Shown here one piece after another: positions 10,665-37,418 of a DNA stretch of 64,000 nt. The notes under the pieces are model-generated. The model ran no database searches, was not told the DNA's origin, and saw only the letters and a program-made list of their open reading frames with translations. The stretch lies in NCBI GenBank assembly GCA_019323015.1, contig JAHWHY010000003.1:29654-93653 (forward strand), written 5' to 3'. The DNA is from Candidatus Woesearchaeota archaeon (lineage in GTDB: Archaea; Nanobdellota; Nanobdellia; Woesearchaeales; ARS49). Every line of letters begins with the position of its first letter. Within the stretch, counting starts at the first letter, position 1. Position numbers and translations under genes: made by a program.

Positions 10665-10702
10665 TTTTTTACAGATTAAGAATTAAGAGCTTATAAAAGT
10701 AA

Positions 10703-13166: not shown

Positions 13167-13728
13167 CTAGCTTGTCTGGCTCTATTCCGATTATGTCGAA
13201 TATTTCTTTTTCGAGTTCAGCATACGCAGTTATTCTTTCTTTGGCTATAACAACACCATACCTTTTTTCAAAATCTTTCATTCTTTCCTGCAAAGACATT
13301 ATTTTATCAATTTGCGCTCTTTTGTCAGCATAATTAAGGACTTTTTGCGCCCATGTTTTAACATTGCTGATATTCTTTACATTATGAACTCTTATTATTT
13401 CTGCAACTTCTGGATATTGGTCTTTTAACTCCAGATATGCTGCTTCTGCGTGGTCTACGCCAGGATATTTTTCTTGCAGTTCTTTTGCTTTTTTTAGTTC
13501 TTCTTCACTCAGACCTTCATGATGCGTAAAATCAACTGCTTTTGCAATGTCATGCAATAGTCCTGCAGCTTCAATAAGCTCTAAATTGATATCAACGTCT
13601 TTTTCTTTGAGTTTTTTAGCTAGAAATAATGCAATTTTTGTTGCTAATTTAGAATGAGTTTGTATGCTTTCATGAACTTTATACTCATCCAATAATTTCA
13701 AACACTCTTCTCTTGTTGGTATGCTCAT
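13150..13728 (-). CDS. HD-domain metal-dependent phosphohydrolase
   Basis: H...LLHDIAK HD motif. Embedded between dnaK and dnaJ with overlaps. Confidence 0.75.
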
Positions 13729-14396
13729 AATACTGCCTCAAGTATCTTCTTGGTATTCTTAAAATCTCTAAATATATAATCAGGCTTGTGTTTTTTAAGT
13801 CTTGCTCTTTTTGTTGGGCCTGTTAGCATTGCGATTGTTTTTGCTTTGACTTTCTTGCCTGCTTCTATGTCATGCACAGAGTCTCCGATTACAATAACTT
13901 CTCCTTTGTGTCTCATTCTCTTGATTGCTTTCTTGATACAATCTGCTCTTGTTTTTCCACCGTCACCTGAAATGATTGTATCAAAATACTTGCCAAGCCC
14001 TGTTGCCTTAAGCACTTTTTTTGTTATTTCTGGTTCGTCTCTTGTGACAAGCGCTAGTTTGACTTTTCCTTTGAGTGCATTAAGTAATTTTGTAACACCA
14101 GGATTCACGTATTTTCCTGGGTTTAAAGGAACAGATTTAACAAATTCTTTGATATACAGTTTCATTGCTTTCTGCATATTCTTCTTAATCACAGAAGCAG
14201 GAACTTTGCATATTTCACACATGTCTGTTATGCTTTCAGGTATTAATCTGCCTGCATGATCTACTTTTTCATAGCATCCTGGGCATGAAAATACTTTTCT
14301 TGTGACTTTGTGAAACGCTTTGTCGTGGATTGGGTAAAAATCCACGAGCGTTTCATCCATGTCAAATATTACAAGCTTATTTTTTCTTTTTGTCAT
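13725..14396 (-). CDS. HAD-superfamily hydrolase
   Basis: [12 protein letters not shown] (motif I) and [10 protein letters not shown] (motif IV). Start taken at MTKRKNK (14396); the track start 14420 would overlap dnaK by 44 nt. Confidence 0.75.
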
Positions 14397-21776: not shown

Positions 21777-23800
21777 TCAAAATACCACCCTGCAAGAGCC
21801 TCTTTATACTTGTGCTTTATGTTGGGGTTTTCTGTTTTCTTCTTGTATAAATCACCCAGTTTACTTAATCGCGCATCAGCATCGCTATGCTCCTTAATTA
21901 TGTTATCACATTCATCAGCATACAATTCTAGAAAGTCTATCAGTTCTATTAGGTTTCTTGTATGCCTTAAGTGTATGAGTTTTTCTATCTCAGATTCAGA
22001 ATTATAATAGATTCTATTAATTTCATCGCATATGCTTTTTATTGCTGAATAAGTATCTTCGCTTTCTTTTAGGCTGTTTTTAAAAATGCCTTGTTTTATT
22101 CCTTCTGTAAATTTACCTTTTCGGTGTTTATATAGCACAGAGATATATTCCTGATAAACTTCTTTGACTCCTTCCGATAAATCTGTGCCGCGGCATTGCC
22201 CATTAATTATCGTTGCTGCAGCCATATGCTCTGGCAGAACAAGATACGCTTGATTGTCATCAAGCAACGCTTTTAAGGGATTTTCTTCATTAAGTGCAGA
22301 TTTTAGCACGTCTATTGTTGATATAAACCTTGCGTATTTCTCAATGTAAACTACATCTCTTGTAGTCCAGTCATATCCATTGCAGTTTTCTGTCAAATCC
22401 TTTAATTCATCTTTTTCAAAATCAAATTCGAAGTTAGGCAGATCTAATTCATATTTGTCTTTAAGTAACGCAGTAATTGCAGTCATGTCTTCACATCCCT
22501 CCCTAACAACATCCTGCAAGCCACTGCCAAGTATAAAAATAAGGCAATCTGCAAATTCTCGTGAAAATTTTACAATATGTCTTTTTGTTTTTTCAGCATC
22601 TGTTATGAACGCATAATGCGCCAGTCTATCCTGTTCTATATCCTCCGCTGAAACAGAGACATCCAAAATTTTCTTTATATATTTGCCATATGACTTGGTG
22701 AATTGCTTATCCAGCGCATCTTGAAGTTTCGCGCCCATTACCGCTGCGCCAGTTAATCTTGGAGAATCTTCAAATTCAATCACAAAGAATCTGTTGTACA
22801 AGGCAAAATCTATTTCTTCAGTGCCATTATATTTGGGGTCTTTTGATGGCGGAGGGTTCTGTGCTCCAATAAAGAAGAATTTTCTTCTGTTCTTATCAAA
22901 AACAATCCCTTCTTCTGTAAATTGGGGAATAATCACTCCTAACGGATACTTTTTGCCTTCTATGTTCACACTACCTTGGCTGAGGTCAAAAAGCACATTG
23001 GTATCTCCACGATTCAGTTCATCAACAAAAAAAGCCCCTAATCTATCCATGAGTTCTTTTCTTGGCACATCAATAGGCAATCCGCCGTTATAGGATTCAG
23101 ATTTGGTTATTACTTCAAGAGGATTTGTTCTGATATTATTGAATTTAAAAACAGCATAATTCTCTTTGCCTAAAAAAGTATTCAAATATGTTTCTGCCCA
23201 AAATGTCTTCCCGCCACCTGTTCTGCCTTCAAAAAGTACAGGAAGGTCTCCTAAAAGGTTTGAAGCAAAAAGTACATCCAGCGCAGTTATATTTATTCCG
23301 TTCTTGGTGTTTTTTCCTTTTGCTTTTTCAAAGATGATTTCTTTTTTTTCAAAATTAAAGTCATAATGAAATAATTTAGTGGGATTAGCAGCATCATGTA
23401 TGACTTCGTCCAAAGCGCAGTACGCAGCAAGCAGCAATCCTGCATGAATATATTTTTCTTTTTGAATTTCATTGCCTTGAAAAGAGTTCCATATTTTTTT
23501 AAGGCTTGCAGGTTCTTTTACCTGTTGTTCAATTATTTCATCAAGTTTTTTTGAATTTTCCATTTCTTCTGCCTCTTTCAAGGATTCTTCATCAACAGGC
23601 ACTGCGCTTGCAAGCGCTTCGCCAAATTCTTCATTTTGCTTTAGCAGTTCCTCTGTCTTACGGAGCATATCTTCAGCAGTTTGTTCTTGATAGGTTGCCC
23701 AATCAGCCGGATTAAGCGGTCTTTTGAACCCGCCTTTGCCTTGAACATCTTTGAATAAGCTCTTTCCTCGCTCCTTAATTTTTCTTATCAGCTGCCCCAT
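21767..23800 (-). CDS. MoxR-like AAA+ ATPase with long N- and C-terminal extensions (677 aa)
   Basis: Walker A GRTGGGKT (nt 23204-23227), Walker B FFVDELNR (23009-23032), sensor-1 IGAQNP, and ALYNRF, in MoxR-type order. Confidence 0.75.
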   Translation of the reverse strand: MGQLIRKIKERGKSLFKDVQGKGGFKRPLNPADWATYQEQTAEDMLRKTEELLKQNEEFGEALASAVPVDEESLKEAEEMENSKKLDEIIEQQVKEPASLKKIWNSFQGNEIQKEKYIHAGLLLAAYCALDEVIHDAANPTKLFHYDFNFEKKEIIFEKAKGKNTKNGINITALDVLFASNLLGDLPVLFEGRTGGGKTFWAETYLNTFLGKENYAVFKFNNIRTNPLEVITKSESYNGGLPIDVPRKELMDRLGAFFVDELNRGDTNVLFDLSQGSVNIEGKKYPLGVIIPQFTEEGIVFDKNRRKFFFIGAQNPPPSKDPKYNGTEEIDFALYNRFFVIEFEDSPRLTGAAVMGAKLQDALDKQFTKSYGKYIKKILDVSVSAEDIEQDRLAHYAFITDAEKTKRHIVKFSREFADCLIFILGSGLQDVVREGCEDMTAITALLKDKYELDLPNFEFDFEKDELKDLTENCNGYDWTTRDVVYIEKYARFISTIDVLKSALNEENPLKALLDDNQAYLVLPEHMAAATIINGQCRGTDLSEGVKEVYQEYISVLYKHRKGKFTEGIKQGIFKNSLKESEDTYSAIKSICDEINRIYYNSESEIEKLIHLRHTRNLIELIDFLELYADECDNIIKEHSDADARLSKLGDLYKKKTENPNIKHKYKEALAGWYFECL

Positions 23801-24938
23801 GTAATCCAGTAACTATAGTCCCCCAAAATTTCATCCATCTTTCTTTTGCTTTTTTCTTTCGTTGGCCAGCATTGCCTGAATTGAGATAAGTATCTATCAT
23901 ATCATCAAAAGATGTTGCAGGTGCGCCAAATCCTGTTTTATCTGCATAAATTTTAAAAGCCTCATCAAATGCTGAAAAAAGTTCATAAGCCGCTTCTTTT
24001 CTCGCTAATTCTTTTTGTATTGCCGGATCTGATTTACCGCGCGCAAAAAGACCTCTGCCTGCATCAAAAAAATATTTTATGCCTTTCTTAACTTTAGCGC
24101 AAAGGCTTTCAGCAAATACTGCCTCCTTTATGTCTTCACGCATTTTCTCAGCAGTTTGATACCTATCTTCTGGAAAATACTCTAATGCTTTTGCACAGAT
24201 TTTATCCAGTTTTTTTGGAATAGCAGGATTAGATTCTGAAGGATGTCTGAGGCAGGTAGGTAATTTTCCTGTCAACAGTTGGTACAAAACCACACCTGCA
24301 GAAAAAATATCAGATCGCTTATCGATTCTGCCCGCTCTTTGCTCAGGCGCCATGTACCAAAAAGTTCCTGCAGCACTTGTGCGTAATTTCAAAGTTGAGC
24401 TTAACTCGTCTCCGCTGTAAAGCTGGTCAGATTCTGTGCTCTGTTCATCTGATTCTTGTGCTAATAGCTTAGCTAAACCAAAGTCTGTCACCTTTGCCGA
24501 TGTCAAGTAAGAATATTCATTTGGCAACAAAATATTTGATGGTTTTATATCCCTATGTATTATTCCTTTTTCATGCGCTGAACTTATTGCATCAAGCACA
24601 TCCAGCATAACCCAACAGGTTTCTGCAGGACTGATTCTTCTTTGCTTTAATACATTTTCAAGATTCTTGGGTAAATATTCCATTACAGAAAATTGTGTAT
24701 CCTGTATTGTCCCTAAATTAAATACTCTTACAATATGACAACAAGAATCAGAAAGCATTCCTTGCATCGCAGTATTATCTGCGAAATCTTTGCGGCCGCC
24801 GGTATTCAATTTAATAGTAATATATCTATCAAAACCTACTTGTTCTGCTTTATACACCACACCATTACCGCCTCTGCCGATTTCTTCGATTATCTTTATT
24901 TTTCCATCTTCCAAATAATCATCAGATTTTAGCTCCAT
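23775..24938 (-). CDS. Hanks-type Ser/Thr protein kinase with about 110-aa C-terminal extension
   Basis: IGRGGNGVVYKA...ITIK, HRDIKPSNILL, VTDFGLAK, WYMAPEQ. Confidence 0.9.
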   Translation of the reverse strand: MELKSDDYLEDGKIKIIEEIGRGGNGVVYKAEQVGFDRYITIKLNTGGRKDFADNTAMQGMLSDSCCHIVRVFNLGTIQDTQFSVMEYLPKNLENVLKQRRISPAETCWVMLDVLDAISSAHEKGIIHRDIKPSNILLPNEYSYLTSAKVTDFGLAKLLAQESDEQSTESDQLYSGDELSSTLKLRTSAAGTFWYMAPEQRAGRIDKRSDIFSAGVVLYQLLTGKLPTCLRHPSESNPAIPKKLDKICAKALEYFPEDRYQTAEKMREDIKEAVFAESLCAKVKKGIKYFFDAGRGLFARGKSDPAIQKELARKEAAYELFSAFDEAFKIYADKTGFGAPATSFDDMIDTYLNSGNAGQRKKKAKERWMKFWGTIVTGLHGAADKKN

Positions 24939-25390
24939 TAGATGTTGCCTCCGCGAAATTGTTCTCTGTACAGGTCCTCTATCAATTCATGTTGCCTGAT
25001 TTGAGTAATTGGAAAATTTGAATCCAATTCTGATTTAAAATCATTCATTTCTTTGTTATCCTTAAAGATAGCTTCAAAAAGAAAATCAAAATCACTGTTT
25101 GTTATATGCAAATTGTTTACGCAAGGTTGGCTTGAGAGAAATTCTCTCAAGCTTTCCCTGCAATCGGGTTTTACTCGGATCAGGAATACATATCTTGCAT
25201 GATACCCTAGTTTTTTGAAATCCACAATGCTTGCGTGCTTCTTTATCACGTCTTCTTCCAGTTTTCCAATCCTGTCAAACACAGTCGATTTAGGGGTGTT
25301 TGTGGCAGATGCAATACTAGCAAGGTTAGTTCTTGCATTCTGCCGTAGCTGCTTGACAATCTGCAGGTCTTTTTCTGAGATCATTTCCAA
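24938..25390 (-). CDS. Lrp/AsnC-family transcriptional regulator
   Basis: KDLQIVKQLRQNARTNLASIASATNTPKSTVFDRIGKLEEDVIKK is the HTH_AsnC motif, with a RAM-like C-terminus. TAATG overlap with the kinase start. Confidence 0.85.
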   Translation of the reverse strand: MEMISEKDLQIVKQLRQNARTNLASIASATNTPKSTVFDRIGKLEEDVIKKHASIVDFKKLGYHARYVFLIRVKPDCRESLREFLSSQPCVNNLHITNSDFDFLFEAIFKDNKEMNDFKSELDSNFPITQIRQHELIEDLYREQFRGGNI

Positions 25391-25398: not shown

Positions 25399-26289
25399 TT
25401 ATTCCTTGGCTATGTCATCAAGGCTGAAAGGAAGGCAAACACCAAATCTTTGATGCCATACATCTCTGCCTTTGCTGTCTTTTCCAGACCTCAGATATTC
25501 CAGTAAAGGCCTCTGTCTTTCATCTGGGCTTGGTCTTCCGCCAACAGTATACTTGCCCTTGCCTTCAGGAAGCAGTGCACCAGAATCTTCTGTTGTTATT
25601 CCAAAATCTCCTTCCAGCAATGATTTTTCCAGTCTTAACCTCTCTTTGCCTTCTGTATCTGGGAGTGTGCCGTCTGCTTTTTTCAAAGGAGCTCTTGCCA
25701 GGATGTATCCTACTGCCTCAAAGCAGGACATCTGCTCAAGCAGTGCATAGTCTTTTTCAGCTGCAGCAGTCCAGGAGTAAACTTCGTCTTTTCCATCAGA
25801 TGTCTGAAACTCCAGCACAACAGACCTGGATCGCAGTTCTTTGCTTGTTATTCCATATTGTGCGATTCTTTGGTCCTTGCCTAATACTTCATCCAGTCTC
25901 TCTGCTTCGCCTTCTGGTTGTTTATATCCTATTGCAAAAGGTAATACCCCTTCTTCCTCCTCTTCTTTCATTGGCACTGTAAAAGGCAGCACTATTTCCT
26001 CTTCTGCTTCTCGGTCGATTGAAAAGGGCAGTGTTTGTTCTTCCTCATCTTCTGGCCTTGGCACTGTAAAAGGCAGCACTATTTCCTCTTCAAGTTCCTT
26101 TTGTTTCTGTATTTGTCTTTTCTTTTGTCTTATTTCAGACAAATCTATTGGCTTGCCAGAGTCTCCATTCTGGGCATTGTTCTGAGCATAGTTTCTCTGC
26201 AAGATTTGTCTTTTCTTTTCTCTTAGTTCAGCCAGATTTATCTTTGGTAATTTGTCATCGTCTGGTTGATTTTCATTTTCTTTTGTCAT
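25399..26289 (-). CDS. acidic repeat protein: 2x basic (I[ND]L[AS]E[LI]R.KKRQI) + 4x (acidic run + [IVT]LPF) motifs, unknown C-terminal domain
   Basis: EEEIVLPFTVP / EEEQTLPFSID / EEEIVLPFTVP / EEEGVLPFAIG. A 32-bp perfect DNA repeat occurs at 25973-26004 and 26060-26091. Confidence 0.6.
   Translation of the reverse strand: MTKENENQPDDDKLPKINLAELREKKRQILQRNYAQNNAQNGDSGKPIDLSEIRQKKRQIQKQKELEEEIVLPFTVPRPEDEEEQTLPFSIDREAEEEIVLPFTVPMKEEEEEGVLPFAIGYKQPEGEAERLDEVLGKDQRIAQYGITSKELRSRSVVLEFQTSDGKDEVYSWTAAAEKDYALLEQMSCFEAVGYILARAPLKKADGTLPDTEGKERLRLEKSLLEGDFGITTEDSGALLPEGKGKYTVGGRPSPDERQRPLLEYLRSGKDSKGRDVWHQRFGVCLPFSLDDIAKE
25973..26091. repeat. in-frame 87-nt-period duplication inside the repeat-protein gene
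   Basis: GGCACTGTAAAAGGCAGCACTATTTCCTCTTC is present twice, perfectly. Confidence 0.9.
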
Positions 26290-26432
26290 TTTGATTTGCC
26301 TCCCCGAATGTCTCGGATAATATCCATATATGTCGGAAGAAATATATATAGTTTCAGCAATTATAATTATTATAGCAATTATAGTAATTACAAACCGAAA
26401 ACTATTTATATGACGCGCTGTGATAGCAGAAT

Positions 26433-27383
26433 ATGAAGCGAAAAGTCAATAGGGTGGGCATAAACACCCTTACAGTAAGCTTGCCTAGCAAATGGGCCAA
26501 GCTTCACAATATCAAGCCAGGAGATGAGCTAGATGTAGTAGAAGAAAATAATACGCTTTCAATAATTAAAGGGCAGTTTGCAAAGAAAAAGAAAGAAATT
26601 CATATTGATATGGATAATCTTGATTATTTTACATTAGCCAAACTGCTGATTGCATGCTATGAAGAAAGTTATGATTCCATAAAACTCACGTTTTCTAAAA
26701 AAACAATACAAGATTCTGTTACAGGAGAAGAAATAGATATTTTCAGAGCAATAGACCGTCTTGTGGGAAGATTGCCTACATTCCAGATATTCAGCCAATC
26801 AAATGAGAGGATAATGCTGGGAGACATATCAGAAAAATTGAGTAAATTGGATATTATAATATCCCGGGTATTCTTTCTTATTGAAGAATATTTATTGCGG
26901 TTGATAGAAGACATAAAAACCGGCGATTTTGCAGATTTAAATGCCAGAGAACCAAGACATGACTCCATAGCAAAACAAATTGCTTTGGCAAATAGGATTT
27001 TAATGGATGATGCCTCTAAATCAAAAAGCGAAATTGTGAACACAATCTTGGTTCTAAATTATTTAGATAAAGCAACAGATTTCATAAGATACGGCTACAA
27101 ACATACACAGCGCCATAATAAAAAAATAAGTAAATCAGGCATCAAATTAATGGAAGATGCAACAGAATATATTAAATTATTTAGAACTTGTTACAACAAA
27201 TGCGAGTATAACAACATTAATAAATTGGATATTTTACGAAGTAAAGTCAAAAAAGCAAATCAAAAGATTGCATCAGCAAATCCTTCAGAATTAATCATTG
27301 TTTCAAATCTCAAATGTTTGGTTGAACTGTTAAATGGTGCAGTAAAGGCAGTAATTGCAATTAAATTAGACAAAGAAAATTAG
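26433..27383 (+). CDS. AbrB/SpoVT-type DNA-binding domain + PhoU-like helical domain regulator
   Basis: KVNRVGINTLTVSLPSKWAKLHNIKPGDELDV is a swapped-hairpin AbrB motif. The long helical C-terminus matches archaeal AbrB-PhoU proteins. Confidence 0.65.
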   Translation: MKRKVNRVGINTLTVSLPSKWAKLHNIKPGDELDVVEENNTLSIIKGQFAKKKKEIHIDMDNLDYFTLAKLLIACYEESYDSIKLTFSKKTIQDSVTGEEIDIFRAIDRLVGRLPTFQIFSQSNERIMLGDISEKLSKLDIIISRVFFLIEEYLLRLIEDIKTGDFADLNAREPRHDSIAKQIALANRILMDDASKSKSEIVNTILVLNYLDKATDFIRYGYKHTQRHNKKISKSGIKLMEDATEYIKLFRTCYNKCEYNNINKLDILRSKVKKANQKIASANPSELIIVSNLKCLVELLNGAVKAVIAIKLDKEN

Positions 27384-27393: not shown

Positions 27394-30003
27394 TCAGTTT
27401 AATTCATTCAAATAATATTGTCGTATTGCCTCATTTTTTTGTGTTTGTTCTCTCTTTCTACGAACTCCTGCGAAAATAGATAATTGCAGCAAACGAACAG
27501 GTTCAAAATATTTATGCATCTCTTCATGTTTCCTTGAATCTGCAGCAAATTCTTCATCATGCTCACTGCGCAGCCGGATATATTCACAAAGATATTGCCG
27601 CCTAGTATCTGAATTCAGTTGTAAATCTATATGCGATAAGAAATAACTGATATCTTCAATCTCTTTTCCTAGATGACTGACTCCAAAGTCCAGAACATAT
27701 CCATTCTTAGTATTCTCTAGTTTCCAATCTCCATGAACAACACAATCACCTTGCTCACGCAGATATAGCTCTGTTTCTTCTATTCTCCTTCCGAGCTCCT
27801 TAACTAAGTTTTTAGAAGGCATATTTTGACGAAATCTTCTTAATTCGCTCCTACTAAAACTAGATAAAGGATTTCTCAAAGATTCGTAATGCGGCTCGCC
27901 TTGTAAAGTCTGATAAATCAAACCAGGCAAGACAATACCTTTCTCTTTTCCGGATTCTTTAAGTGCTTCTGTCGCTTCCTTATGGAATATGCCCATCAAA
28001 TATAAATTATGCAGCACAGGATTCTTACAAAATCCAGATTTTACCAAAGCCGATTGTCCCTGTGCAGTATTGCTCAAAACCATTACACCTATATTATCTA
28101 ATTCCAGATATTCTTTCAATTCTGGCATGAATGCACGCATTGCATTAAGTTCTAAGTCATAAATCCTTTTTTCGTTTTGGCAAATATCCTTCCTAGCAAC
28201 TTTAACCACAACACCGTTTGATGCAAGAACAATGCCAGAGCTGAAACCTCCTTTTAATTCATTACTTGCATCATATTCTTTAATCTTAGCCACAAGAGTT
28301 TCATTTTCAAAACCTGCTTTTGTTAGAAGATCACGAATCAAATCTTCCTCAGAAGGCATTTGCTGAGAGTAAGGAAAACTGCCAGAAATATCTACATGTA
28401 TACCACGCGCCTTTAGTTTTCTGACTGCTTCTGTATTAGCATACTTGCCGTTCTTAATAAGAGTCCAATTAATAGAATCGGGCAGCCTTATTTTCTTTAG
28501 ACTTCCATTCTTAGCAAACTCGTAATCTGGCAAGTCTGAAATATCTGTTACAGGCGTTTCAACTAAATCAATTTCTTCAAGATTTTGATAAGTTTTTAGC
28601 AATGAGAGTTCTTTATTTCCAAACTTATGATTATTTCGCAAATCAATATATTTCAGAGTTACACTCAATGAATCAGAACCTAAACCAGAGTAATTCTTAA
28701 TATTGCCGCACAGGGGCATAATCAAAACTCTTAAATTTTGATAATCTCTGAGAAAATTAACATCTTCTAGTGCCTTACTGCTTGAAATATCCAAATGTCT
28801 TAGTGTTTCCTTCACAGTTAGCGAATCTAATCCAGAAAAATTCTCAATACTGCAATTGCCAAGTTGAAGTATTTCAAGTTGTTTGTAATCATCTAAAAAA
28901 GAAGTGTCCCTTAAAATAGTACTGTTAAGGTTTAAGCTTTGAACTGTAGCCTTAATCGATTCAGAAGCCAGGCCAGAAAAATCAATTCGGCTTTGCTCAA
29001 CAGAAGGAGACAAAGGATTAGAACTGTCTACAGTAAATCCACAGTCTTCAGCATTAATAATCCTCAGCTTTTTGTAGCCTGTTAAAAAAGACACGTCTCG
29101 CAGACCAGTATTATGGCTTAAGTCTAGTTCTTCTAACGTCTCTTTTAAAGATTCAGAATTCAAGCCAGAAAAATCTTCAAGACTTGCGCAACTGGATATA
29201 TCCAAAATCTTTAGGTGTTTGTATCCCTCAAGGAAGGAAACATTATTCAAGCCAGCGCAGTCATTAATATCAAGTATTTCTACTGTTTGTTTAAGTGAAT
29301 CATCATCCAGGCCTGTGAATCTGCGGATATTTCCGCAACTTGCAATGTTTAAATGTACTAAATTTTTATAACCTTTTAAAAAAAGCAAGTCATAGAGGCG
29401 CGTGTTAGTTAGTATCAATTCCTGCAATGTATCTTTCAAATCACCTGAATCTAATCCTTCAGGATGCGAAATAGGGCAATTATCTAAATGCAATACTTTA
29501 AGGCTTTTGTACCTTTTAAGAAAATGAACACGATCTATATCAGCCTGTGCACTAAGATATAATTCTTCAAGAGTTTGTTTTATATGGAATGAATTAAGCG
29601 CTGAAAAATCAGCCACTTCAGAACGGCTCAAATCCAGAGATTTTAGATTCTTGTAATTTTCTAAAAAAACTAAATTTGCCAGTTTGCAGTCAACACCAAG
29701 CTCTAATGATTGCAGAGTTTCCTGCAAATTCTCAGATGCAAGCGGTGTGAAATCAGATATTTTAGCTGCGGAGTTCGAAAGACCTCGACTTTGATATGTG
29801 GCGTATTTCCTCGAATGATTACTTTTCCTGATAATATTTTGCTCATTATGCATAACAAGCTTCTCCAAGTGATTAAATTTCTCTATTCCTGCAAGACTGG
29901 TAAGCCAATCTGACTCCTGCTCTCCAGGAATAACCAAATCACCCCATAGAAGTATGTCCGGCCCTTTATCCTCAATCCAGTCATTCAAACTACGCGTTTC
30001 CAT
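27394..30003 (-). CDS. cytoplasmic LRR protein (about 9 Cys-containing LRR super-repeats) fused to C-terminal kinase-like (APH/ePK-fold) domain
   Basis: Repeats of the form SFLxxYKxLxxLxxxxCxxxxxFSGLxSxSLKETLxxLDLS. C-terminus has VVKVARK, CVVHGDWKLENT (nt 27721-27750) and VLDFG. No signal peptide or TM segment. Confidence 0.75.
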   Translation of the reverse strand: METRSLNDWIEDKGPDILLWGDLVIPGEQESDWLTSLAGIEKFNHLEKLVMHNEQNIIRKSNHSRKYATYQSRGLSNSAAKISDFTPLASENLQETLQSLELGVDCKLANLVFLENYKNLKSLDLSRSEVADFSALNSFHIKQTLEELYLSAQADIDRVHFLKRYKSLKVLHLDNCPISHPEGLDSGDLKDTLQELILTNTRLYDLLFLKGYKNLVHLNIASCGNIRRFTGLDDDSLKQTVEILDINDCAGLNNVSFLEGYKHLKILDISSCASLEDFSGLNSESLKETLEELDLSHNTGLRDVSFLTGYKKLRIINAEDCGFTVDSSNPLSPSVEQSRIDFSGLASESIKATVQSLNLNSTILRDTSFLDDYKQLEILQLGNCSIENFSGLDSLTVKETLRHLDISSSKALEDVNFLRDYQNLRVLIMPLCGNIKNYSGLGSDSLSVTLKYIDLRNNHKFGNKELSLLKTYQNLEEIDLVETPVTDISDLPDYEFAKNGSLKKIRLPDSINWTLIKNGKYANTEAVRKLKARGIHVDISGSFPYSQQMPSEEDLIRDLLTKAGFENETLVAKIKEYDASNELKGGFSSGIVLASNGVVVKVARKDICQNEKRIYDLELNAMRAFMPELKEYLELDNIGVMVLSNTAQGQSALVKSGFCKNPVLHNLYLMGIFHKEATEALKESGKEKGIVLPGLIYQTLQGEPHYESLRNPLSSFSRSELRRFRQNMPSKNLVKELGRRIEETELYLREQGDCVVHGDWKLENTKNGYVLDFGVSHLGKEIEDISYFLSHIDLQLNSDTRRQYLCEYIRLRSEHDEEFAADSRKHEEMHKYFEPVRLLQLSIFAGVRRKREQTQKNEAIRQYYLNELN

Positions 30004-30186: not shown

Positions 30187-30609
30187 ATGAATTACTTAAC
30201 TACAGAAGAAGAGGAAGCACTAAAACAATACCGCCCGTTATTGGATTCTGGGAAGCATGCAGATATTACTGTAGATGATATCTTGGAAAGTCTGGATATT
30301 GCATTTCACATTGCTAAAAGCGATCCTAAAGACTTGATGTTCACGTATGAAGCTATATTCAGGGAGTACATGAGTGATAAGTTAAGGGCAGCTTATAGGA
30401 AAAGCAGGATTGAACTGCAGGTTATTCTCCCAAAATTGTTAAAATACGCGATTGAGTTAGGCCCCAAAATCAAGGAATGGGCAGAAGGAAGGCAGCCCAG
30501 AGAAACAATTCCTTTAGAACTAATCCCAGAAAATCACATTTACCTGCTAATTCTTAAGAAATTCGCAGAAACTGCAGAATTAGGTGAGTGGAATACTTTT
30601 GAAGATTAA
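30187..30609 (+). CDS. hypothetical helical protein (140 aa)
   Basis: ORF only. Convergent with, and overlapping by 4 nt, the end of the giant surface-protein gene. Confidence 0.5.
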   Translation: MNYLTTEEEEALKQYRPLLDSGKHADITVDDILESLDIAFHIAKSDPKDLMFTYEAIFREYMSDKLRAAYRKSRIELQVILPKLLKYAIELGPKIKEWAEGRQPRETIPLELIPENHIYLLILKKFAETAELGEWNTFED

Positions 30610-33600
30610 ATAAAAAACATTGTTGCCAAGAAGTAAATTATCAATCCTACAACCACAACGCCGACTGTTATTCCTATTCCAATTGCTTGGCTGTCTTTTG
30701 GTATGCTGTCCAGCCAGCTTGTTGTTGCTCCGCCAGTTATTTGGTTTGTGGCATTTTGTTCATTTGTTATTGTTTGCTTTATTTTGCTGTCTTGCACTTC
30801 ATCTTGTGTTTCATCTTGTGCAGTGTCTTGTGTTAAACCGCCGTCACTGATGCTTATGTTTGCAAATGGCACTACAGATGTTCCTGTGCCCATTGGCTGC
30901 TCAAACTTGTCAAATCTCATCTGTGCTCTTGTGTAATAGTTATTCATGATTATTATTCTTATTTCAGACATTCCGTCATTGTCAAGGTCTATTGCCTTTA
31001 TTTCATAATTTATCAAGGAGTATGGTACATCATGAAGCGTGAAATTCACATGTCCTCTGTCTATGCCGTCCATTCTTAATGTGTAAGTTAAATTATTCAG
31101 TGTTATCACTGCGTTATCTAGCCTGTTCAGTGTTCTTATTTCAGGGCTTCTTTCATCAAGGTTTATTTTCCATGTTCTTGCGTAGAAAGAGCTTCCGCCC
31201 CCTCCACCTCCGCCGCCAGTACGGCGGACAGTTGTGCCTCCACCGCCTCCAGCGCTTGTTACTTGTATGCTTGTTGTGTATGTATAATCAGTTGCGCCGT
31301 ATGAATCTGTGACAGTCAAGGATGCGAATTGATACCCTGTTGTTGAATATGCATGTGTTACTGTTGTATTTGTGGTTGTAATAGTTGTTCCATCACCGAA
31401 GTTCCAGAAGTATGAGACTATTGAATCATTTAATGGCCCTCCTATGTTTGGGTCTGTTGAGCTAGATGCATCAAAAGTAAATGCCTGGTTTACTTGTCTG
31501 CTGCTTGGCGTGAATGTAAAGGATGCTGTTGGTGCAAGGTTTATTACATCAGAAACATTTGCTGCTCCGCTTGCTGTTGCATTGTATGTTATGTTACCTT
31601 GTGTGATTACTCCTGAATAAATCACTTTGTTTGTTATGTTTGCATTTGTTACAGTTACATTGTAAAGTGGAGAGTCATCTATGTGTGAATTGGTTATTGT
31701 TGAATATTGAACAGATGAATTTGCTCCTGTTATTGTTGAGCCTGTGACTGCTGAAGCAAAGACATATGCACCATTTGTGATATTTGAATTCTGGACGTTT
31801 GAAAATCTTCTTACGTCAGCATCATCAATTTTTGAATTTGTGCAGGTTGAATCCCAGATAGAGCCTTGATCAAGACTGCAGTATGATACTGTGGAATTAT
31901 CTATGTTTGAATGATCAGTTAAATTTGAGTGATCCACATTTGAAATATCTATAGATGAATAGTCATCAACAAAAGAGTATGTTACATTTGAGTTCATTAC
32001 CTGGCTGTTTCCTGTTATTGTGCTGCCGGTCAGGTCACTTCCTGGATTTGGCGGGTCTACAAAAGAGTTAAGTATTGTACAATTTGTTCCTTGATAATTT
32101 TTAACAGTGGAGTTTATTACAACACATTTTGTCAATATTGATCCATTTATTACAGAATTTGTTGCATTAACACTCTGCAGTGTGCTGTTGTTCAAGGATG
32201 TTCCGTATAGTATTGAATGATTTGCTTTTGCTCCGTTTGTGAGTGCGCTTCCCTGTTCTATGATATTCTGCACAGTGTAGTTCAAGTAAGTATTATTTAT
32301 GGTTGTATCACCTACACAAGCAACATGTACTGTGTCTGCTCCTAGGTTCAGTCCGCTTATTGTTCCTGAGTGTGTCAGCTGTCCTGTTGTTGTGAAGTCA
32401 TTTGTCATGTTTGCGTATGCTGAATCATTCAAGGACCATCTGCAGCTTGTGTTATATGTTGTTGCAAAGCTTAGTGTGAATGATGTGTTTATTGTAGAGC
32501 CTAATGCTGGGTTAAAACTCATTTTCATTGGAGGCATTGCCACAAATATCCAGTGTGTTGCAGATGCTGCCAAATAATTTGGTGTTCCTGCATAAGTTGC
32601 TGTGACATTGTGTGCTCCTGCAGGTATTGGCCCGAGGTTCCAGGCAGGAGGTATTGTTCCCATTAAGGTTCTGTTAAAATACCAGTTTAGTGTTGCATTT
32701 GGCACGTTTGTGCTTGCATTTACTATTATTGTGGTGTTTGCTGGAACATTTATGTTGCCGTTTGTTCCATTCAAGGTCAAGTTAATCACTGCCTGCACTG
32801 GATTTACAATCAGAACTTGTGATTCATTATCCCCTGTGTAATTTTGTGTTGTGTTATAATAGCATACATATGTGTAATTTCCTGCATTTAATATGGAATT
32901 ATCTGTCAATCCTGGAAGTGCTGCTCCATTTCTTGTCAAAGTAGGCGTAACGCCTGATGGAGTTGCATTGCAGCTTACATTTGCTGCTGTTCCATATGTT
33001 AATGGCGTCTGTAATGATAAAGTTACATTTACTTGTGCTGGAACTATGGTAAAATTTGTTGATATATTTTGTGCAGTATAATTTTGTGTTGCGTTTACAT
33101 AACAAAAATAGGTATATGTTCCTGCTCCCAGTATAGAAATGTCTGGGTTTGCAACAATTGTTCCGTTTCTCATCAATATTGGTGTTACTTGTGTTGTGTT
33201 TGCACTGCAGCTGACATTCGCAGGAGTTCCATACGGTATGCCATTAGGCCGCACTGGCACCATAAAGGACAAGTAAGGATTTGCCTTGTCTATTGTATAA
33301 TTATGCCAAGGCGTGCTGTATTGCAGGCCGTTTGTGTAATTTGCATGCCATCTATAAGTGTAGTTTCCTGCTGCAGGCCAGTTGAAGACTGCATAATAAT
33401 CATATGAAGGTGCTACGTGTGTTGTTGACCTGTTTTGTCCTGCAAAATCTATCCACACTTTATCAACAGTTGCGTTTTGTGTTAATGGTATTGATGAATT
33501 TGTTGTGGCTTGTGCAGTTATCTGGAAGTATATTGAAGTGGCATTTCCGCTGTTTTGCAGGTATGTTGCTGGTGATGCAGGGCTTACATGCATGTTGCTG

Positions 33601-34874
33601 AAGCTGATTGGCGGGTGATTATATACATTTAAGACAATAGACTTGTTGCTGCAATTATTTGCTGCTCCTGAATCATCACATACTGTTATAAGAATACTGT
33701 TCATGCTTGTGTTTGCTGGCGTGAAGTTTACCCATCCAGAGCCTGAATCAATGTCAAATAAGGAAGTATTGTCATAGAATGTCAGCACGTCTCCTGTATC
33801 CACGTCTCCTGCTGTGAATTGAAAGCTGTATGGCAGGTTAACCCATGCGCCTGCAGGAGGTGTTCCTGATGTAAAGAATGGATCATCATTGACAGGTGTT
33901 ATCGTGATTACTACATTATTGCTTGGTGCTGAATAGTTCTGTCCGTCAAATGCTGTGAAATTAACAGTTAACACTCCGTTAAAATCTGCTGCAGGCACCA
34001 GTACTGCTTCTGTTTTATTGTCACCAAGGTCAAACTGATATGAGATTGTCATGTTAGGAACTGTTGAGTTCTTGTATGTGATATATGCTGGCTTATTGTC
34101 TATATCATAAAAATAATCAGATATGTTGAACACATAGCTTGTATCTTCTGCAAATGTTATTGCTGGTATTGTTGTGTTAAAAACAGGCGCGTCATTTACA
34201 GGTGCTACAGTTAAAGTGAACTTTCCTGTTCCTGTCAAGTGGCCGTCAGATGCAGTTATTGTTATCACGCTTGTTCCAAACGCATCTGGTGTTACAGTTG
34301 TGCAGTCAATATATTGGTTGCCTGTTATTGAGCAGTTTGCTACTGTGGTGTTTGATTGGCCTACAATCGTATAAGTCAAATTTGCTGGTGCTGTCCAGTC
34401 ATCTGTTACATTTGCATGCAGGTCAATTAAATTTGTATTCATGCCAGAGTCTTCATTTATTAAAGCATTAGGCAAAGCACTTAGGTCTGGCGGTCTGTTT
34501 GGCCCCTTGAATGTCACATTTAATGTTTGTGTCTGTACTGTATTGCTTCTGTCATATACTATTGCATGATAGGATTCGTTTTTTTGTATGCCAGAAAGTC
34601 GGGATGTTGTATAAATGCATTGTGCTGCAAATCCGCAGTTGTGTGTTGCTGTGTAGTTTCCATTGACATAAAAGTCTATGTGCGAGATTCCCGGGCTTGG
34701 CCAGCTGTCTATTGCGCTCACTCTTACTGTTACAGAGTTCCAGACCAGTGTTCCTGGTTGTGCTGTTATTCCCACGCTTGGTGCTGGATCTGGCACTTGT
34801 GCTGCTGCAAAGCTGGCACTGACTAATAATAATAGCATAAAGGGCAGTAATTTTATTAACTTCATTTTATTCAT
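30606..34874 (-). CDS. giant surface protein (1422 aa): signal peptide, cadherin-like/Ig-like repeats, tandem Ig-like modules, beta-helix-like N/S/T-rich region, PKD domain, Gly runs, C-terminal TM anchor
   Basis: Signal peptide LLLLVSASFAAAQV; VNDAPVF and VNDDPFF domain junctions. PKD motif FDASSSTDP...WNFGDGT...HAY...TVTD at nt 31260-31532. GGGGG...GGGGGGGG at 31191-31253. TM segment IGIGITVGVVVVGLIIYFLATMFFI. Dozens of NxS/T sequons. Confidence 0.85.
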   Translation of the reverse strand: MNKMKLIKLLPFMLLLLVSASFAAAQVPDPAPSVGITAQPGTLVWNSVTVRVSAIDSWPSPGISHIDFYVNGNYTATHNCGFAAQCIYTTSRLSGIQKNESYHAIVYDRSNTVQTQTLNVTFKGPNRPPDLSALPNALINEDSGMNTNLIDLHANVTDDWTAPANLTYTIVGQSNTTVANCSITGNQYIDCTTVTPDAFGTSVITITASDGHLTGTGKFTLTVAPVNDAPVFNTTIPAITFAEDTSYVFNISDYFYDIDNKPAYITYKNSTVPNMTISYQFDLGDNKTEAVLVPAADFNGVLTVNFTAFDGQNYSAPSNNVVITITPVNDDPFFTSGTPPAGAWVNLPYSFQFTAGDVDTGDVLTFYDNTSLFDIDSGSGWVNFTPANTSMNSILITVCDDSGAANNCSNKSIVLNVYNHPPISFSNMHVSPASPATYLQNSGNATSIYFQITAQATTNSSIPLTQNATVDKVWIDFAGQNRSTTHVAPSYDYYAVFNWPAAGNYTYRWHANYTNGLQYSTPWHNYTIDKANPYLSFMVPVRPNGIPYGTPANVSCSANTTQVTPILMRNGTIVANPDISILGAGTYTYFCYVNATQNYTAQNISTNFTIVPAQVNVTLSLQTPLTYGTAANVSCNATPSGVTPTLTRNGAALPGLTDNSILNAGNYTYVCYYNTTQNYTGDNESQVLIVNPVQAVINLTLNGTNGNINVPANTTIIVNASTNVPNATLNWYFNRTLMGTIPPAWNLGPIPAGAHNVTATYAGTPNYLAASATHWIFVAMPPMKMSFNPALGSTINTSFTLSFATTYNTSCRWSLNDSAYANMTNDFTTTGQLTHSGTISGLNLGADTVHVACVGDTTINNTYLNYTVQNIIEQGSALTNGAKANHSILYGTSLNNSTLQSVNATNSVINGSILTKCVVINSTVKNYQGTNCTILNSFVDPPNPGSDLTGSTITGNSQVMNSNVTYSFVDDYSSIDISNVDHSNLTDHSNIDNSTVSYCSLDQGSIWDSTCTNSKIDDADVRRFSNVQNSNITNGAYVFASAVTGSTITGANSSVQYSTITNSHIDDSPLYNVTVTNANITNKVIYSGVITQGNITYNATASGAANVSDVINLAPTASFTFTPSSRQVNQAFTFDASSSTDPNIGGPLNDSIVSYFWNFGDGTTITTTNTTVTHAYSTTGYQFASLTVTDSYGATDYTYTTSIQVTSAGGGGGTTVRRTGGGGGGGGSSFYARTWKINLDERSPEIRTLNRLDNAVITLNNLTYTLRMDGIDRGHVNFTLHDVPYSLINYEIKAIDLDNDGMSEIRIIIMNNYYTRAQMRFDKFEQPMGTGTSVVPFANISISDGGLTQDTAQDETQDEVQDSKIKQTITNEQNATNQITGGATTSWLDSIPKDSQAIGIGITVGVVVVGLIIYFLATMFFI
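32799..33242. repeat. tandem duplicated about 75-aa module inside the surface-protein gene
   Basis: ANVSCSANTTQVTPILMRNG...GTYTYFCYVNATQNYT aligns with ANVSCNATPSGVTPTLTRNG...GNYTYVCYYNTTQNYT. Confidence 0.8.
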
Positions 34875-34877
34875 TTT

Positions 34878-37418
34878 TTATTTTTCTTCTGCGCCAAATG
34901 GAACCTCTAAAGCTAATGCTATCTCTCTTTCAAGGTCATCTGTTGCTAAATGCCTGCTTTGGTTGAATTCAATCGCCCCTGCAAATCCTCTGAGTAGTCC
35001 TCTTTTGATGTCTGTTCTTAATCTGATTCCCCACTGTCTTTCCAAAGCTAGGTCAGCGTAATATCCTGATAAGATTAATGCAGCGCGCGGCGTGTCCAGT
35101 ATTGCTGAAATTTCCCCGAACCTTTCTGTTACTGTCCTTCCGTGCATGCCTGGCGCTTTTCCTACTCCGCCGTATAATAATACTGCAAATCCGTAGTCAT
35201 TTTTGCCGTCTATTACTCCTACTGGTATGTTGTTGAAGCCTTTTCTTTCTAAAAAGGACTGCATTTCATCACTTAGTTCTATTCTTGAGCCTGTTTTTCG
35301 TGAGTCTTTGTCATACATTAATTGTACAATGCTGGACAGGTCTCTTATTACTGCGCTTCCTAGAAGCGCTCCTGCGCCTCCGCCGTATTTCACGTCTCCT
35401 TGATAGCCTTGTATCCAGCCGTGGCCGAATAGCATTGCCTTGAACAAGTCATTGCCATTTTCATCTGTTATTGTGCCTATGTTAAGTGCGAGTGCTGCTT
35501 GTCCCCTGTATGTTTTTGCTTTTGGTGTCTCTTCTCCTGCTTCCTTGTCTTTTTCAAGGTCTTGCAGGAATGTCAATGCAATTCCAAAATCATCATTTAC
35601 ATATAGGTCTGCTCTTATTCCTGGCTTGTTTATGATATGAGTGTTTCTTGTCCAGGTTGATCCGTCTCCGCTTAGCATGAATGCGTCTTCTGTGATATAA
35701 TCCCAGCTTACGCCTATTGATCCTTTGATTTTATCGCCTAGCAAAAATTCTAGTGGAACTGCAAGCAGTGCTGATATGCTTTGTTTTCTGTATAGGTCTT
35801 GCCTGTCTCTTGTTTCTCCTGTTGCATCATAGCTTGCATTAGGGTCTGTGTGGTTTTCATGGTGTGTCAGGCTGTCTTCTTCTGTTAGCATCTCTACTGA
35901 CTGCCAGGCGCCTGCTGCGCGTATTCTCAATGGCAGTACTGAGTTTCTTAGGTAGCTGCTCAGCCATGCTGAGAAAAATTCGCTTGTTATGAAATTGCGG
36001 ATGTTTGAGTCTTTTGTTTCTGTTTCAGTAGGTGTATCGCTTACTGGAAGATCGTCCAGAAACACCCATTCCTTGTTTCGCAGGCTCTCTGCCATTGCTC
36101 CTATTTGCAGTAATTCAGGATTTTGAAAATAATCATTTTCAGCACCAAGGATTATCAGTGGGCTTAGCTCAAGAAAGCCTGACAAGTTTAGGTCTGTTGA
36201 CTTGTTGTCTGCAGGGTTTCTTCTGCTTAGGTATTCTCTTAGTAATGCAAGTTCAAGCACGCTTCCCAGTGTGCCGTGCAGGCTTTCCCTGTTTCCTTCT
36301 ATATCCTCAAATAACATGCCTTGCCTGTATTCCAGTGCTGTTTGGTATCTTTTTCCTAGTGCACCCTCTAGTACATCAGCCAGTGTTGTTCCTGTGCCTG
36401 TTTTTTTGCCTTGTGGGGTTACTGCACCTCCGCCAGTAGATCCATCTTGCTGTCTTCCATGAGGCGGTGTTTCAGGCTTGTCTTTCTCTCCTCTTCCTTC
36501 ATCTGCAGGAGGCGGTGGTGTTTCTGGCTTGTCTTTTTCTCCTGATGCAGGTGTTTCTTCAGGCGGTTTTGCCTGCTGCTGTAATTGTTTGATTTTTTGC
36601 TCAACATGCGATATTAAGGGGCTGAATTCTTCAGTTTCAGGGAATATTTCTTCTGCTTGTCTTAATGTATTTATTATCCTGGTGTACCAGTTGATTTTTC
36701 CTTGGGCTGTTCTTGATTCTTCTAAACCTTTAAATGCAGTTTCTATTGCTGAATCACATTGAAGCATTTGTGAGAATAAGTGTTCTTCTTCTTGTGCTTG
36801 TGCAACTGCTTTTTTTGCCTCAGTGACCAAATGCCTGCAAGATTTTCCTTCAATTAAAGAAGGATATTTTTTTGCTTGTGCTAATCCTTCTTGTGCCAGC
36901 TCTAGCATTCTTTGGGCATACTGCGTCCCTTCAATTTGTGACTCTATCTTTTTAAGTGTTGAATAATATGTTTTTATTGCAGAAATAAGTGCTCTTGCTT
37001 CTTCTTTTCCTTTTTTTTGCCGTGCACTGGTTCGATCGCGCGTGTATGCAAGCGCTGCTAAAGCTTCTTGTTGTTTAGCACCAGCATATGCTGTTCCGAT
37101 AGCTGCAAATTCTTTCTTCTTTTCTGGATCACTTATTCTTTTGGATAAGTTGGAGAATATGTATCTGAAATCATCTTGTGAGAGTGCAGGATCTTGGCAA
37201 GCCCCAAGCATTAATCGCATTATCTGCTCGTCTGTCTCTTTTCCTCTTGGAAGGTTACTATAACTGTCTGCAACAATCCTGACCAAGTTTGGGTCTTCTA
37301 TTTTTTTAGGGGTTTCTTCTGCATTTGCAGGTGTTGCTGTATATGAAAGAAGTCCGAATGTCACTGCTGAAGCAATCCCTGCTGCTTTGCCTAATACTCT
37401 CTTTATATAACTTGGCAC
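34878..37418 (-). CDS. secreted 846-aa protein: signal peptide, helical N-domain, Pro/Glu/Lys linker with tandem GEKDKPETPP, beta-rich C-terminal half
   Basis: Signal peptide ...LLSYTATPANA/EE. Repeat at nt 36463-36543. Stop codon is 3 nt before the start of the giant gene. Confidence 0.7.
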   Translation of the reverse strand: MPSYIKRVLGKAAGIASAVTFGLLSYTATPANAEETPKKIEDPNLVRIVADSYSNLPRGKETDEQIMRLMLGACQDPALSQDDFRYIFSNLSKRISDPEKKKEFAAIGTAYAGAKQQEALAALAYTRDRTSARQKKGKEEARALISAIKTYYSTLKKIESQIEGTQYAQRMLELAQEGLAQAKKYPSLIEGKSCRHLVTEAKKAVAQAQEEEHLFSQMLQCDSAIETAFKGLEESRTAQGKINWYTRIINTLRQAEEIFPETEEFSPLISHVEQKIKQLQQQAKPPEETPASGEKDKPETPPPPADEGRGEKDKPETPPHGRQQDGSTGGGAVTPQGKKTGTGTTLADVLEGALGKRYQTALEYRQGMLFEDIEGNRESLHGTLGSVLELALLREYLSRRNPADNKSTDLNLSGFLELSPLIILGAENDYFQNPELLQIGAMAESLRNKEWVFLDDLPVSDTPTETETKDSNIRNFITSEFFSAWLSSYLRNSVLPLRIRAAGAWQSVEMLTEEDSLTHHENHTDPNASYDATGETRDRQDLYRKQSISALLAVPLEFLLGDKIKGSIGVSWDYITEDAFMLSGDGSTWTRNTHIINKPGIRADLYVNDDFGIALTFLQDLEKDKEAGEETPKAKTYRGQAALALNIGTITDENGNDLFKAMLFGHGWIQGYQGDVKYGGGAGALLGSAVIRDLSSIVQLMYDKDSRKTGSRIELSDEMQSFLERKGFNNIPVGVIDGKNDYGFAVLLYGGVGKAPGMHGRTVTERFGEISAILDTPRAALILSGYYADLALERQWGIRLRTDIKRGLLRGFAGAIEFNQSRHLATDDLEREIALALEVPFGAEEK

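Follow-up and report, generated by a model that had tools for sequence, protein, structure and literature searches.

We analyzed a 64,000-nt stretch of DNA from a Candidatus Woesearchaeota archaeon (assembly GCA_019323015.1, contig JAHWHY010000003.1, positions 29,654 to 93,653 of the forward strand), hereafter the window. Its minus strand carries, at positions 27394..30003, a complete open reading frame (ORF) with an ATG start whose product of 869 aa consists of an N-cap, 17 leucine-rich repeats (LRRs), a C-cap/linker and a C-terminal protein-kinase-like domain; we refer to this protein as the LRR-kinase. Convergent with it on the plus strand lies a gene of 316 aa (26433..27383), the partner, which encodes an N-terminal AbrB/MazE (SpoVT-AbrB) domain followed by a helical PhoU-like region of ~270 aa. 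The stop codons of the two genes are only 10 nt apart. Their tail-to-tail arrangement proved to be strictly conserved and suggests a so far undescribed signaling cassette of archaea. Among other genes, the window encodes ribosomal protein L15e, an ATP-dependent DNA ligase, regulators of the TrmB and Lrp/AsnC types and a DnaK-GrpE-DnaJ cluster. The L15e sequence shares 92% identity with its counterpart in a Candidatus Woesearchaeota metagenome-assembled genome (MAG), and the next ~50 best matches belong to Woesearchaeota or Nanoarchaeota. The host is therefore a DPANN archaeon; an earlier annotation made from the letters alone (the sequence-only reading) had called it archaeal.

The boundaries of the LRR-kinase gene are exactly those of the sequence-only reading. 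The identical protein is also encoded in other assemblies that were made independently, on 11 contigs in all, among them JGI 3300017987 and two SRA runs, and this is therefore a real gene and not an assembly artifact. Residues 1-95 (29719..30003; all features of the LRR-kinase are on the minus strand) comprise the N-terminal region and the LRR N-cap, with the motif SLxGIExFxxLExL, and were modeled with a low predicted local distance difference test (pLDDT) score. The N-terminal motif is common to the LRR-bearing relatives P0003, P0051 and P0058, and the ATG at position 30003 is therefore supported as the true start.

The 17 LRRs occupy residues 96-527 (28423..29718). They were identified from the Pfam LRR_4 match (91.8 bits, E = 2e-26), the layout of the repeats, autocorrelation, the solenoid of the AlphaFold model (pLDDT 75-98) and Foldseek. 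The array thus presents what defines an LRR protein: tandem LxxLxLxx(N/C) repeats of 20-30 aa, a solenoid and a match to an LRR hidden Markov model (HMM). Further matches were obtained to LRR_EndoS (33 bits), to XopAC-type LRRs (E = 0.004) and to internalin-like LRRs. The best structural match of the N-terminal half in the PDB is the Roco LRR domain of Chlorobium tepidum (5il7; Foldseek, 6e-11), with internalin A (InlA) and SHOC2 also among the matches. The units alternate between 22-24 aa (LxxLxLxxxxxLxDxxFLxxYKx) and 25-26 aa (LxxLxIxxCxxLxxFSGLxSxSLKET), and a single unit of 41 aa (residues 313-353) carries a 15-aa insertion. Autocorrelation of residues 80-510 (BLOSUM62) peaks at lags 49 and 96 (z = 5.0 relative to 200 shuffles), and the array is therefore built of ~8 super-repeats of ~48-49 aa. 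The super-repeats of the sequence-only reading are thus real, although it had counted about nine of ~47 aa. The same reading had assigned the array to the Cys-containing LRR subtype. This holds for about every second repeat: 8 of the 17 units present a Cys at the position of the Asn ladder (C106, C176, C223, C249, C272, C321, C384 and C432). With the exception of C249, these ladder Cys are confined to the longer units; the shorter units carry S, T or N. The other units lack the Cys, the protein does not match Pfam LRR_6, and the uniform 25-27-aa repeats with a ladder Cys throughout that characterize the subtype were not found.

No transmembrane segment was detected in the LRR-kinase (the highest Kyte-Doolittle score of any 19-mer is 1.28). 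No signal peptide was obvious from a hydropathy scan and from reading the N-terminus, with no dedicated predictor run. The protein is thus likely cytoplasmic, as had been proposed. ROCO/LRRK2 proteins are likewise cytoplasmic, with an LRR solenoid N-terminal to the kinase, and the top Foldseek match is itself a Roco LRR domain. However, the window protein matches neither the Roc GTPase nor COR, only ~40 residues separate its LRRs from the kinase domain, and this domain is APH-like rather than a TKL-type eukaryotic protein kinase (ePK). Plant LRR receptor kinases follow the same logic of ligand binding by LRRs coupled to a kinase, but the window protein has no transmembrane helix, no extracellular LRR and, within the limits of the scan described above, no signal peptide, and its kinase belongs to another family. 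The parallels that the sequence-only reading had drawn with these two groups therefore extend to the domain logic and not to their defining features. A prokaryotic fusion of LRRs to a protein-kinase-like (PKL) domain is also known as the bacterial LRR kinase, BLRK. BLRK is bacterial and falls in the ePK cluster, unlike the window family, which is archaeal (DPANN) and resembles the choline/aminoglycoside kinases (CAK-like); this distinction was drawn by description. BLRK was named as a kinase family by Kannan et al. (2007; PMC1821047).

The kinase-like domain covers residues 543-869 (27397..28377) and was delimited from its relatives detected by HMMER, pLDDT, Foldseek and its catalytic residues. 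The three motifs reported by the sequence-only reading were verified by translation: VVKVARK (residues 599-605; 28189..28209) forms the beta3 strand with the ATP-anchoring Lys601, HGDWKLEN (residues 757-764; 27712..27735) forms the catalytic loop with Asp759, Lys761 and Asn764, and DFG (residues 772-774; 27682..27690) contains the Mg-binding Asp772. The fusion of an LRR array to an APH/protein-kinase-like fold was likewise borne out by Pfam LRR_4, AlphaFold and Foldseek. Using the alignment of 63 family sequences, the AlphaFold model reached a mean pLDDT of 85.3 and values above 90 over the kinase domain; a single-sequence model of the full protein (pLDDT of 37) was discarded.

We then searched for relatives of this domain. 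A word-indexed homology search retrieved a single relative, and an exhaustive HMMER search of 1.84 billion representatives retrieved 73 representative relatives, including 57 with E < 1e-10. Residues 544-869 alone matched the Pfam model of aminoglycoside phosphotransferases (APH; PF01636) with 14.9 bits (E = 0.022), below the gathering cutoff of 23.2 bits, and the NCBIfam CcrZ model with E ~0.01, also below threshold. Among 63 relatives, five reached Pfam APH with an E-value of 1e-3 or better (best 5.5e-7), and this is the sole kinase model matched by members of the family. Indeed, neither the LRR-kinase nor any of these 63 relatives matched Pfam Pkinase (PF00069) at E = 1e-3 or better. A phmmer search of the domain against the sequences of the PDB returned nothing relevant, and the profile of the family matched best an APH (3csv, E = 0.039), with choline kinases at E ~1 and weak matches to Aurora kinases. 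The structural search of the C-terminal half retrieved APH(3')-Ia (Foldseek, E = 8e-6, TM-score 0.45-0.51).

The PKL superfamily is recognized by a G-rich loop, a beta3 Lys, an alphaC Glu, the His of an LxxLH motif, HxD...N, the Asp of DFG and a downstream Asp (Kannan et al. 2007; PMC1821047). We counted the conservation of the active site over 56 full-length kinase domains of the family. The Gly of the G-loop (Gly586) is kept in 53 domains, the beta3 Lys601 in all 56 and the alphaC Glu611 in 52. His674, which sits in the family motif NLxLMGLFHK that corresponds to the LxxLH motif, is kept in 56/56, as are Lys761 and Asn764 of the catalytic loop and Asp772 of DFG; the catalytic Asp759 is kept in 55/56. 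Downstream, the pair E783 and D784 is acidic in nearly all members, and D784 is D or E in 56/56. The eight residues that mark an active PKL member (G586, K601, E611, H674, D759, N764, D772 and D784) are thus all present and 93-100% conserved. Y808, R812, D816 and K850-R851 are further conserved residues of the family. These residues make up the complete catalytic set listed for the superfamily, covering both ATP binding and phosphotransfer, and the family is therefore very probably enzymatically active.

The family nevertheless combines features of two groups of kinases. Typical hallmarks of small-molecule kinases in the CAK group are an insert between subdomains VIa and VIb and the lack of an extended activation loop (PMC1821047). 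Both are found here: the insert spans 83 residues between H674 and H757, and D772 is separated from D784 by only 12 residues, which therefore leaves no activation loop. The family shares with APH/CAK kinases the bilobal PKL fold, this insert between VIa (LxxLH) and VIb (HxD), the missing activation loop and a helical C-terminal subdomain. It differs from them by falling below the Pfam threshold and by its NLxLMGLFHK motif, and presents two traits that are not CAK-like: a D-x-K-x-x-N loop with an invariant Lys two residues after the catalytic Asp, and an obligatory fusion to variable N-terminal modules, in addition to its pairing with an AbrB-PhoU-like regulator. Such a catalytic loop, with K761 present in 56/56 domains, is of the Ser/Thr-kinase type. 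HRDLKPEN is the form of this loop in Ser/Thr kinases, and a Lys at the D+2 position is an ePK Ser/Thr feature that is unusual in APH or choline kinases. The consensus of the family, IHGDWKPEN (HGDWKLEN in the window protein), is very close to HRDLKPEN, which explains the weak profile matches to Aurora kinases.

With Hanks-type Ser/Thr kinases (PF00069), the family shares the G-rich loop, the beta3 Lys, the alphaC Glu, the near-HRDLKPEN loop, a multi-domain organization with a C-terminal kinase and, in related loci, the identical position beside AbrB-PhoU-like genes. However, over the whole domain it has no Pkinase match, no activation segment and no APE motif, and it carries the CAK-type insert. 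An alignment of the family with Hanks-type kinases (hhalign) covered only the catalytic loop and DFG, in 24-28 columns, and for this reason we discarded the notion that the family represents no more than a diverged version of the neighboring Hanks-type kinases. These results show that the domain constitutes a new and rare family, not classified to date, that belongs to the CAK-like branch of the PKL superfamily and that no Pfam or NCBIfam model captures, and that it joins a CAK/APH-type scaffold with an ePK-type catalytic loop.

The scaffold raises the possibility that the LRR-kinase is a small-molecule kinase of the CAK type (choline/aminoglycoside/homoserine/MTR-kinase-like), acting on a metabolite, a lipid head-group or an antibiotic, with the PhoU-like regulator sensing the compound or the phosphate status and the LRRs serving only to scaffold or localize the enzyme. 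APH(3')-Ia as best structural match, APH as the only Pfam kinase model reached (5/63 relatives), 3csv as best profile match in the PDB, the VIa-VIb insert and the missing activation loop all agree with this, as does the link of PhoU proteins to phosphate homeostasis, relatives of the partner being named "phosphate uptake regulator". We consider this explanation, the main rival of the sensor-kinase proposal made below, possible but rather unlikely. The Lys at D+2 is invariant (K761, 56/56), known metabolic CAK enzymes are mostly single-domain proteins, and every member of this family joins the kinase domain to variable N-terminal modules, LRRs and a receiver domain among them; tandem paralogs differ in their N-termini, and Hanks-type protein kinases fill the same slot in related loci.

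The architecture of the relatives bears on this question. In every one of them the kinase domain is C-terminal, behind 50-680 residues of variable sequence, and the proteins range from 430 to 1130 aa. LRRs recognizably similar to those of the window protein occur in about 11 of 62 members, together with the same N-cap and C-cap motifs, and these members are scattered over a rough neighbor-joining tree of the kinase domain. One member matches the Pfam receiver-domain model (E = 6e-4), and the N-terminal sequence of P0012 begins like a receiver domain; for most of the remaining N-termini, Pfam gave no match. No transmembrane segment was found in the relatives, except for a weak hydrophobic stretch in one fragment. 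Two loci contain tandem arrays of paralogs with different N-termini on the minus strand, each array with one adjacent AbrB-PhoU-like gene: three paralogs of 485, 740 and 441 aa in L018 (6928-12720) and two of 1131 and 504 aa in L019 (6949-11855). In L018, a His_Phos_1 phosphatase gene sits between the array and the partner. In our judgment, such modularity is more in keeping with a signaling output domain placed behind exchangeable inputs than with a metabolic enzyme.

The partner matches PF04014 over residues 11-46 (34.3 bits, E = 2.3e-8), as do all six aligned homologs, and its N-terminal domain can be assigned to the AbrB/MazE fold; the same domain also matches the MazE_antitoxin and "doc_partner" models. 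More distant members of the partner family carry PF01895 (PhoU), namely P0150, P0156 and P0176, and several homologs are named "phosphate uptake regulator PhoU" in their sources. A search with the partner profile against PDB sequences matched no PhoU structure. Homologs of the partner form at least 242 clusters from Nanoarchaeota and Woesearchaeota. Over 118 homologs, T12 and S/T16 of the AbrB domain and Y76 are conserved and represent candidate acceptor residues. PhoU-family proteins are counted among archaeal transcription factors, and one survey lists them as one of the larger such families in an archaeon (PMC6316755). Inside the partner gene, a 124-aa antisense ORF (26669-27043, minus strand) has apparent homologs in L016 and L019; most simply, it is a shadow of the conserved sense-strand gene and not a gene of its own.

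The conservation of the gene pair was examined in independent loci that carry a family member. Patterns of the kinase domain found no locus in GTDB genomes, whose loci were reached through the partner gene instead. An AbrB-PhoU-like homolog is convergent with and abuts the kinase gene in all 12 loci with a readable downstream side, and the 3' ends of the two genes often overlap by 8-27 nt. The pairing persists even though identity among the kinases amounts to only 21-53% and the remaining flanking genes vary from locus to locus. In each of the five GTDB loci that were fetched with the partner gene alone, a kinase of the family adjoins it. The third, semi-conserved neighbor is an Lrp/AsnC-type regulator on the far side of the partner, located in the window at 24938..25390 (minus strand; Pfam HTH_24, HTH_AsnC and AsnC_trans_reg) and found in 6 of 13 loci, as well as in L101 and L102. 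A gene of the histidine-phosphatase superfamily lies inside or beside the cassette in two loci. We found no description of the family or of the cassette in the literature searched on DPANN LRR kinases, archaeal AbrB-PhoU proteins or PhoU with Hanks-type kinases.

We further analyzed the kinases found beside more distant partner homologs. On a 421-kb Woesearchaeota contig (L101), three tandem genes with a C-terminal Pfam Pkinase domain (5001-10948) are convergent to a distant partner homolog, and the HMM of our family did not match them. In L103, an ABC1/UbiB kinase gene (5001-7664) is co-directional with the partner homolog beside it. When metagenomes were scanned with the partner, 31 non-redundant loci offered 1 kb or more of downstream sequence. 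In 14 of them, a Hanks-type kinase gene directly adjoins the partner in convergent orientation, and four more contain one within the flank. At least two others encode large proteins with classical APH motifs (HxDxxxxN ... D ... GDPxxD), both on the minus strand: a 706-aa protein in L111 (5426-7543; HADLAHSN...GDPMLD) and a 995-aa protein in L139 (5414-8398; HGDMYETN...GDPTLD). The kinase family of the window was found in none of the 31 loci. Overall, distant partner genes stand tail to tail with one to three Hanks-type genes in L101, L112, L114, L116-L120, L124-L126, L130, L132-L134, L136, L138, L140, L142, L145 and L155, and these kinases likewise present a variable N-terminus and a C-terminal kinase domain. 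Hanks-type, APH-type or ABC1 kinases thus stand beside the distant partner genes in ~20 of 31 loci, which indicates that non-orthologous PKL kinases replace one another in the cassette. Since the slot is also filled by other PKL kinases, the regulator/kinase cassette appears to be a general feature of these archaea, of which the window gene is one variant.

Based on these results, we tentatively propose that the LRR-kinase is a modular sensor kinase of the cytoplasm that acts on the AbrB-PhoU-like regulator or together with it, a reading to which we give a little less than an even chance. The LRRs, or the receiver or other domain in the paralogs, would bind a protein ligand or signal, and this binding would control the kinase. 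The kinase would in turn phosphorylate the regulator or, by analogy with PhoU-PhoR, be gated by it, and the regulator would set transcription from its divergent promoter. In the window, this promoter would drive an operon of a 296-aa ORF and genes for the Lrp/AsnC regulator, a Ser/Thr kinase (STK) and putative AAA and vWA proteins. Judging from the gene layout, the divergent intergenic region between the partner and this operon (26290..26432) is a candidate operator for the regulator. Both parts of this scheme have bacterial counterparts: in the PhoU-PhoR(-PstB) system, a PhoU-domain protein gates the kinase PhoR, which controls transcription of the Pho regulon, and Hanks kinases phosphorylate AbrB in Bacillus. 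As in PhoU-PhoR, a PhoU-like protein would be tied to a kinase here; the difference is that the PhoU-like part is fused to an AbrB domain and that an enzyme of the PKL fold takes the place of the histidine kinase. We saw no pst genes in any of the loci examined.

Several observations weigh against this proposal. The VIa-VIb insert, the missing activation loop and the APH-like fold are hallmarks of small-molecule kinases, and the closest solved fold, APH(3')-Ia, is such an enzyme. The partner can be named only as a putative substrate of the LRR-kinase. Its PhoU assignment is indirect, through homologs that bear this name or PF01895: the window protein itself does not match PF01895, and only one of six close homologs reaches E = 0.076. 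The linkage of the two genes is positional and not operonic, since convergent genes cannot be co-transcribed. Among the distant partner loci, ~11 of 31 show no recognizable kinase, and the Hanks-type calls in the metagenome loci were made with a crude three-sequence HMM, with a single call verified against an ePK in the PDB.

Beyond the partner, the window contains an operon on the minus strand (19824-25390) with the Lrp/AsnC gene, a Hanks-type STK gene that continues from it (23775-24938; Pkinase, 121 bits) and genes for proteins of 677 and 650 aa. The first of these two proteins carries a Walker A motif (GRTGGGKT) and the second a MIDAS-like LVDASSS motif, in a layout that resembles the kinase/vWA regulatory modules of other archaea. 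The sequence-only reading had named them MoxR and vWA; neither name was confirmed, as the two proteins have no match in Pfam, the PDB or PADLOC and only the two motifs are visible. Between the partner and the Lrp/AsnC gene is inserted a very acidic 296-aa ORF (25399-26289, minus strand) with the internal repeat EEEIVLPFTVP / EEQTLPFSI / EEGVLPFAI, for which we obtained no database match and which is absent from related loci.

The sequence-only reading had also linked the LRR-kinase functionally to the STK/MoxR-like/vWA genes (19824-24938) or, alternatively, considered it an effector sent into a host cell by an episymbiotic archaeon. The organism is indeed a DPANN woesearchaeon, the operon lies ~2.5 kb away, divergent from the partner and co-directional with the Lrp/AsnC gene, and the DASSS and Walker A motifs are present in its 650-aa and 677-aa products. 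Some bacterial effectors directed at hosts do have LRRs, and the array shows XopAC-type (E = 0.004) and internalin-like matches. We nonetheless find both versions improbable. The operon does not stand beside the gene in any of the 12 other independent loci, which largely refutes a conserved linkage, and MoxR and vWA find no support in Pfam, the PDB or PADLOC. Neither the window protein nor its relatives, apart from the one weak stretch mentioned above, presents a transmembrane segment or an obvious signal peptide, we saw no genes for secretion in the loci examined, and nothing supports the effector claim. Moreover, a DNA-binding regulator as the conserved neighbor speaks for a role in internal regulation. 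This neighbor, the convergent AbrB+PhoU-like gene at 26433-27383, had not been flagged by the sequence-only reading, and a link to the operon could hold only via the divergent promoter of this regulator. The same reading would have abandoned its proposal if the operon linkage were not conserved and the kinase domain fell among the ordinary kinases of choline or aminoglycosides that occur in unrelated contexts. The first is what we observed; the second is not, as the domain represents a rare family of its own, whose context is strictly conserved, instead of joining those kinases.

The AbrB/MazE fold of the partner suggests another explanation, namely a module similar to toxin-antitoxin or defense systems, in which the kinase would be a toxin (as HipA or Doc) neutralized by an AbrB/MazE-fold antitoxin and the LRRs would sense invading proteins. 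The matches of the partner to MazE_antitoxin and "doc_partner" and the presence of Fic-domain genes two to three genes away in two loci are in line with this view, and LRRs serve as sensors in other immune systems. We judge it very improbable: the genes are convergent in all loci and not a co-transcribed pair, as would be expected of type II systems of the HipBA or Doc type, the partner exceeds 300 aa with its large PhoU-like domain, and the kinases reach 430-1130 aa. The genes that flank related loci are mostly housekeeping or unannotated and not recognizable defense genes. PADLOC had no match for either the LRR-kinase or the partner, and the interpretation as a defense system was dropped on this ground.

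Other observations concern the related loci and the remainder of the window. The Fic-domain genes of L009 (5796-6797, minus strand) and L011 (5059-6039, plus strand) are homologous and located two to three genes upstream of the kinase gene; the two loci are otherwise unrelated, and the Fic gene of L009 adjoins a gene with a RelA_SpoT domain. Besides P0004 of the kinase family and the corresponding partner, contig L011 encodes a protein of 300 aa in which Sigma70_r2 and r4 domains were recognized (13534-14436, plus strand). One would not expect such a gene in an archaeon; it may have been acquired by transfer, or the contig may come from a bacterium (possibly CPR) or a virus. In three loci with two different family members, the start codon of the kinase gene lies within a 4-nt overlap with an ORF of 43-45 aa (7873-8004 in L008, 7867-8004 in L009 and 640-777 in L010), and no equivalent was seen in the window. 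Many MAGs labeled "uncultured Methanosarcinales archaeon" (binchicken; L018, L026, L028-L030 and others) contain an L15e that groups with Woesearchaeota/Nanoarchaeota, and these labels are probably placeholders or errors. Upstream of the LRR-kinase gene, two very large ORFs (30606-37418, minus strand) encode a 1422-aa protein with PKD and Ig-like domains and an 846-aa protein without match; the PKD and Ig domains lead us to guess that these could be surface or adhesion proteins. Scans of the window for tRNAs and Rfam families were empty.

Our results describe a rare PKL kinase family and a conserved two-gene cassette in DPANN archaea, which an Lrp/AsnC gene often follows. The genomes of DPANN archaea are tiny and these organisms depend on hosts, and to our knowledge almost no signal transduction has been characterized in them. 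Should the kinase act on the regulator or together with it, PhoU-family regulators would gain a concrete upstream input and an APH-fold family would prove to function as a protein kinase; both predictions are directly testable with two recombinant proteins. A broader and speculative extension of the sensor-kinase proposal, which we regard as unlikely, is a previously unrecognized signaling system in DPANN archaea of the Woesearchaeota type, in which a dedicated AbrB-PhoU-like transcription factor would be the cognate substrate or gatekeeper of interchangeable PKL sensor kinases (Hanks-type, APH-like or of the new family), with LRR versions sensing proteins, possibly derived from the host, inside the symbiont. 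Two-component systems are, as far as we know, largely lacking in these reduced genomes. If this extension were true, an APH-fold family would have taken on the role of a genuine protein kinase within a pathway of one kinase and one regulator, and this pathway would functionally replace two-component systems.

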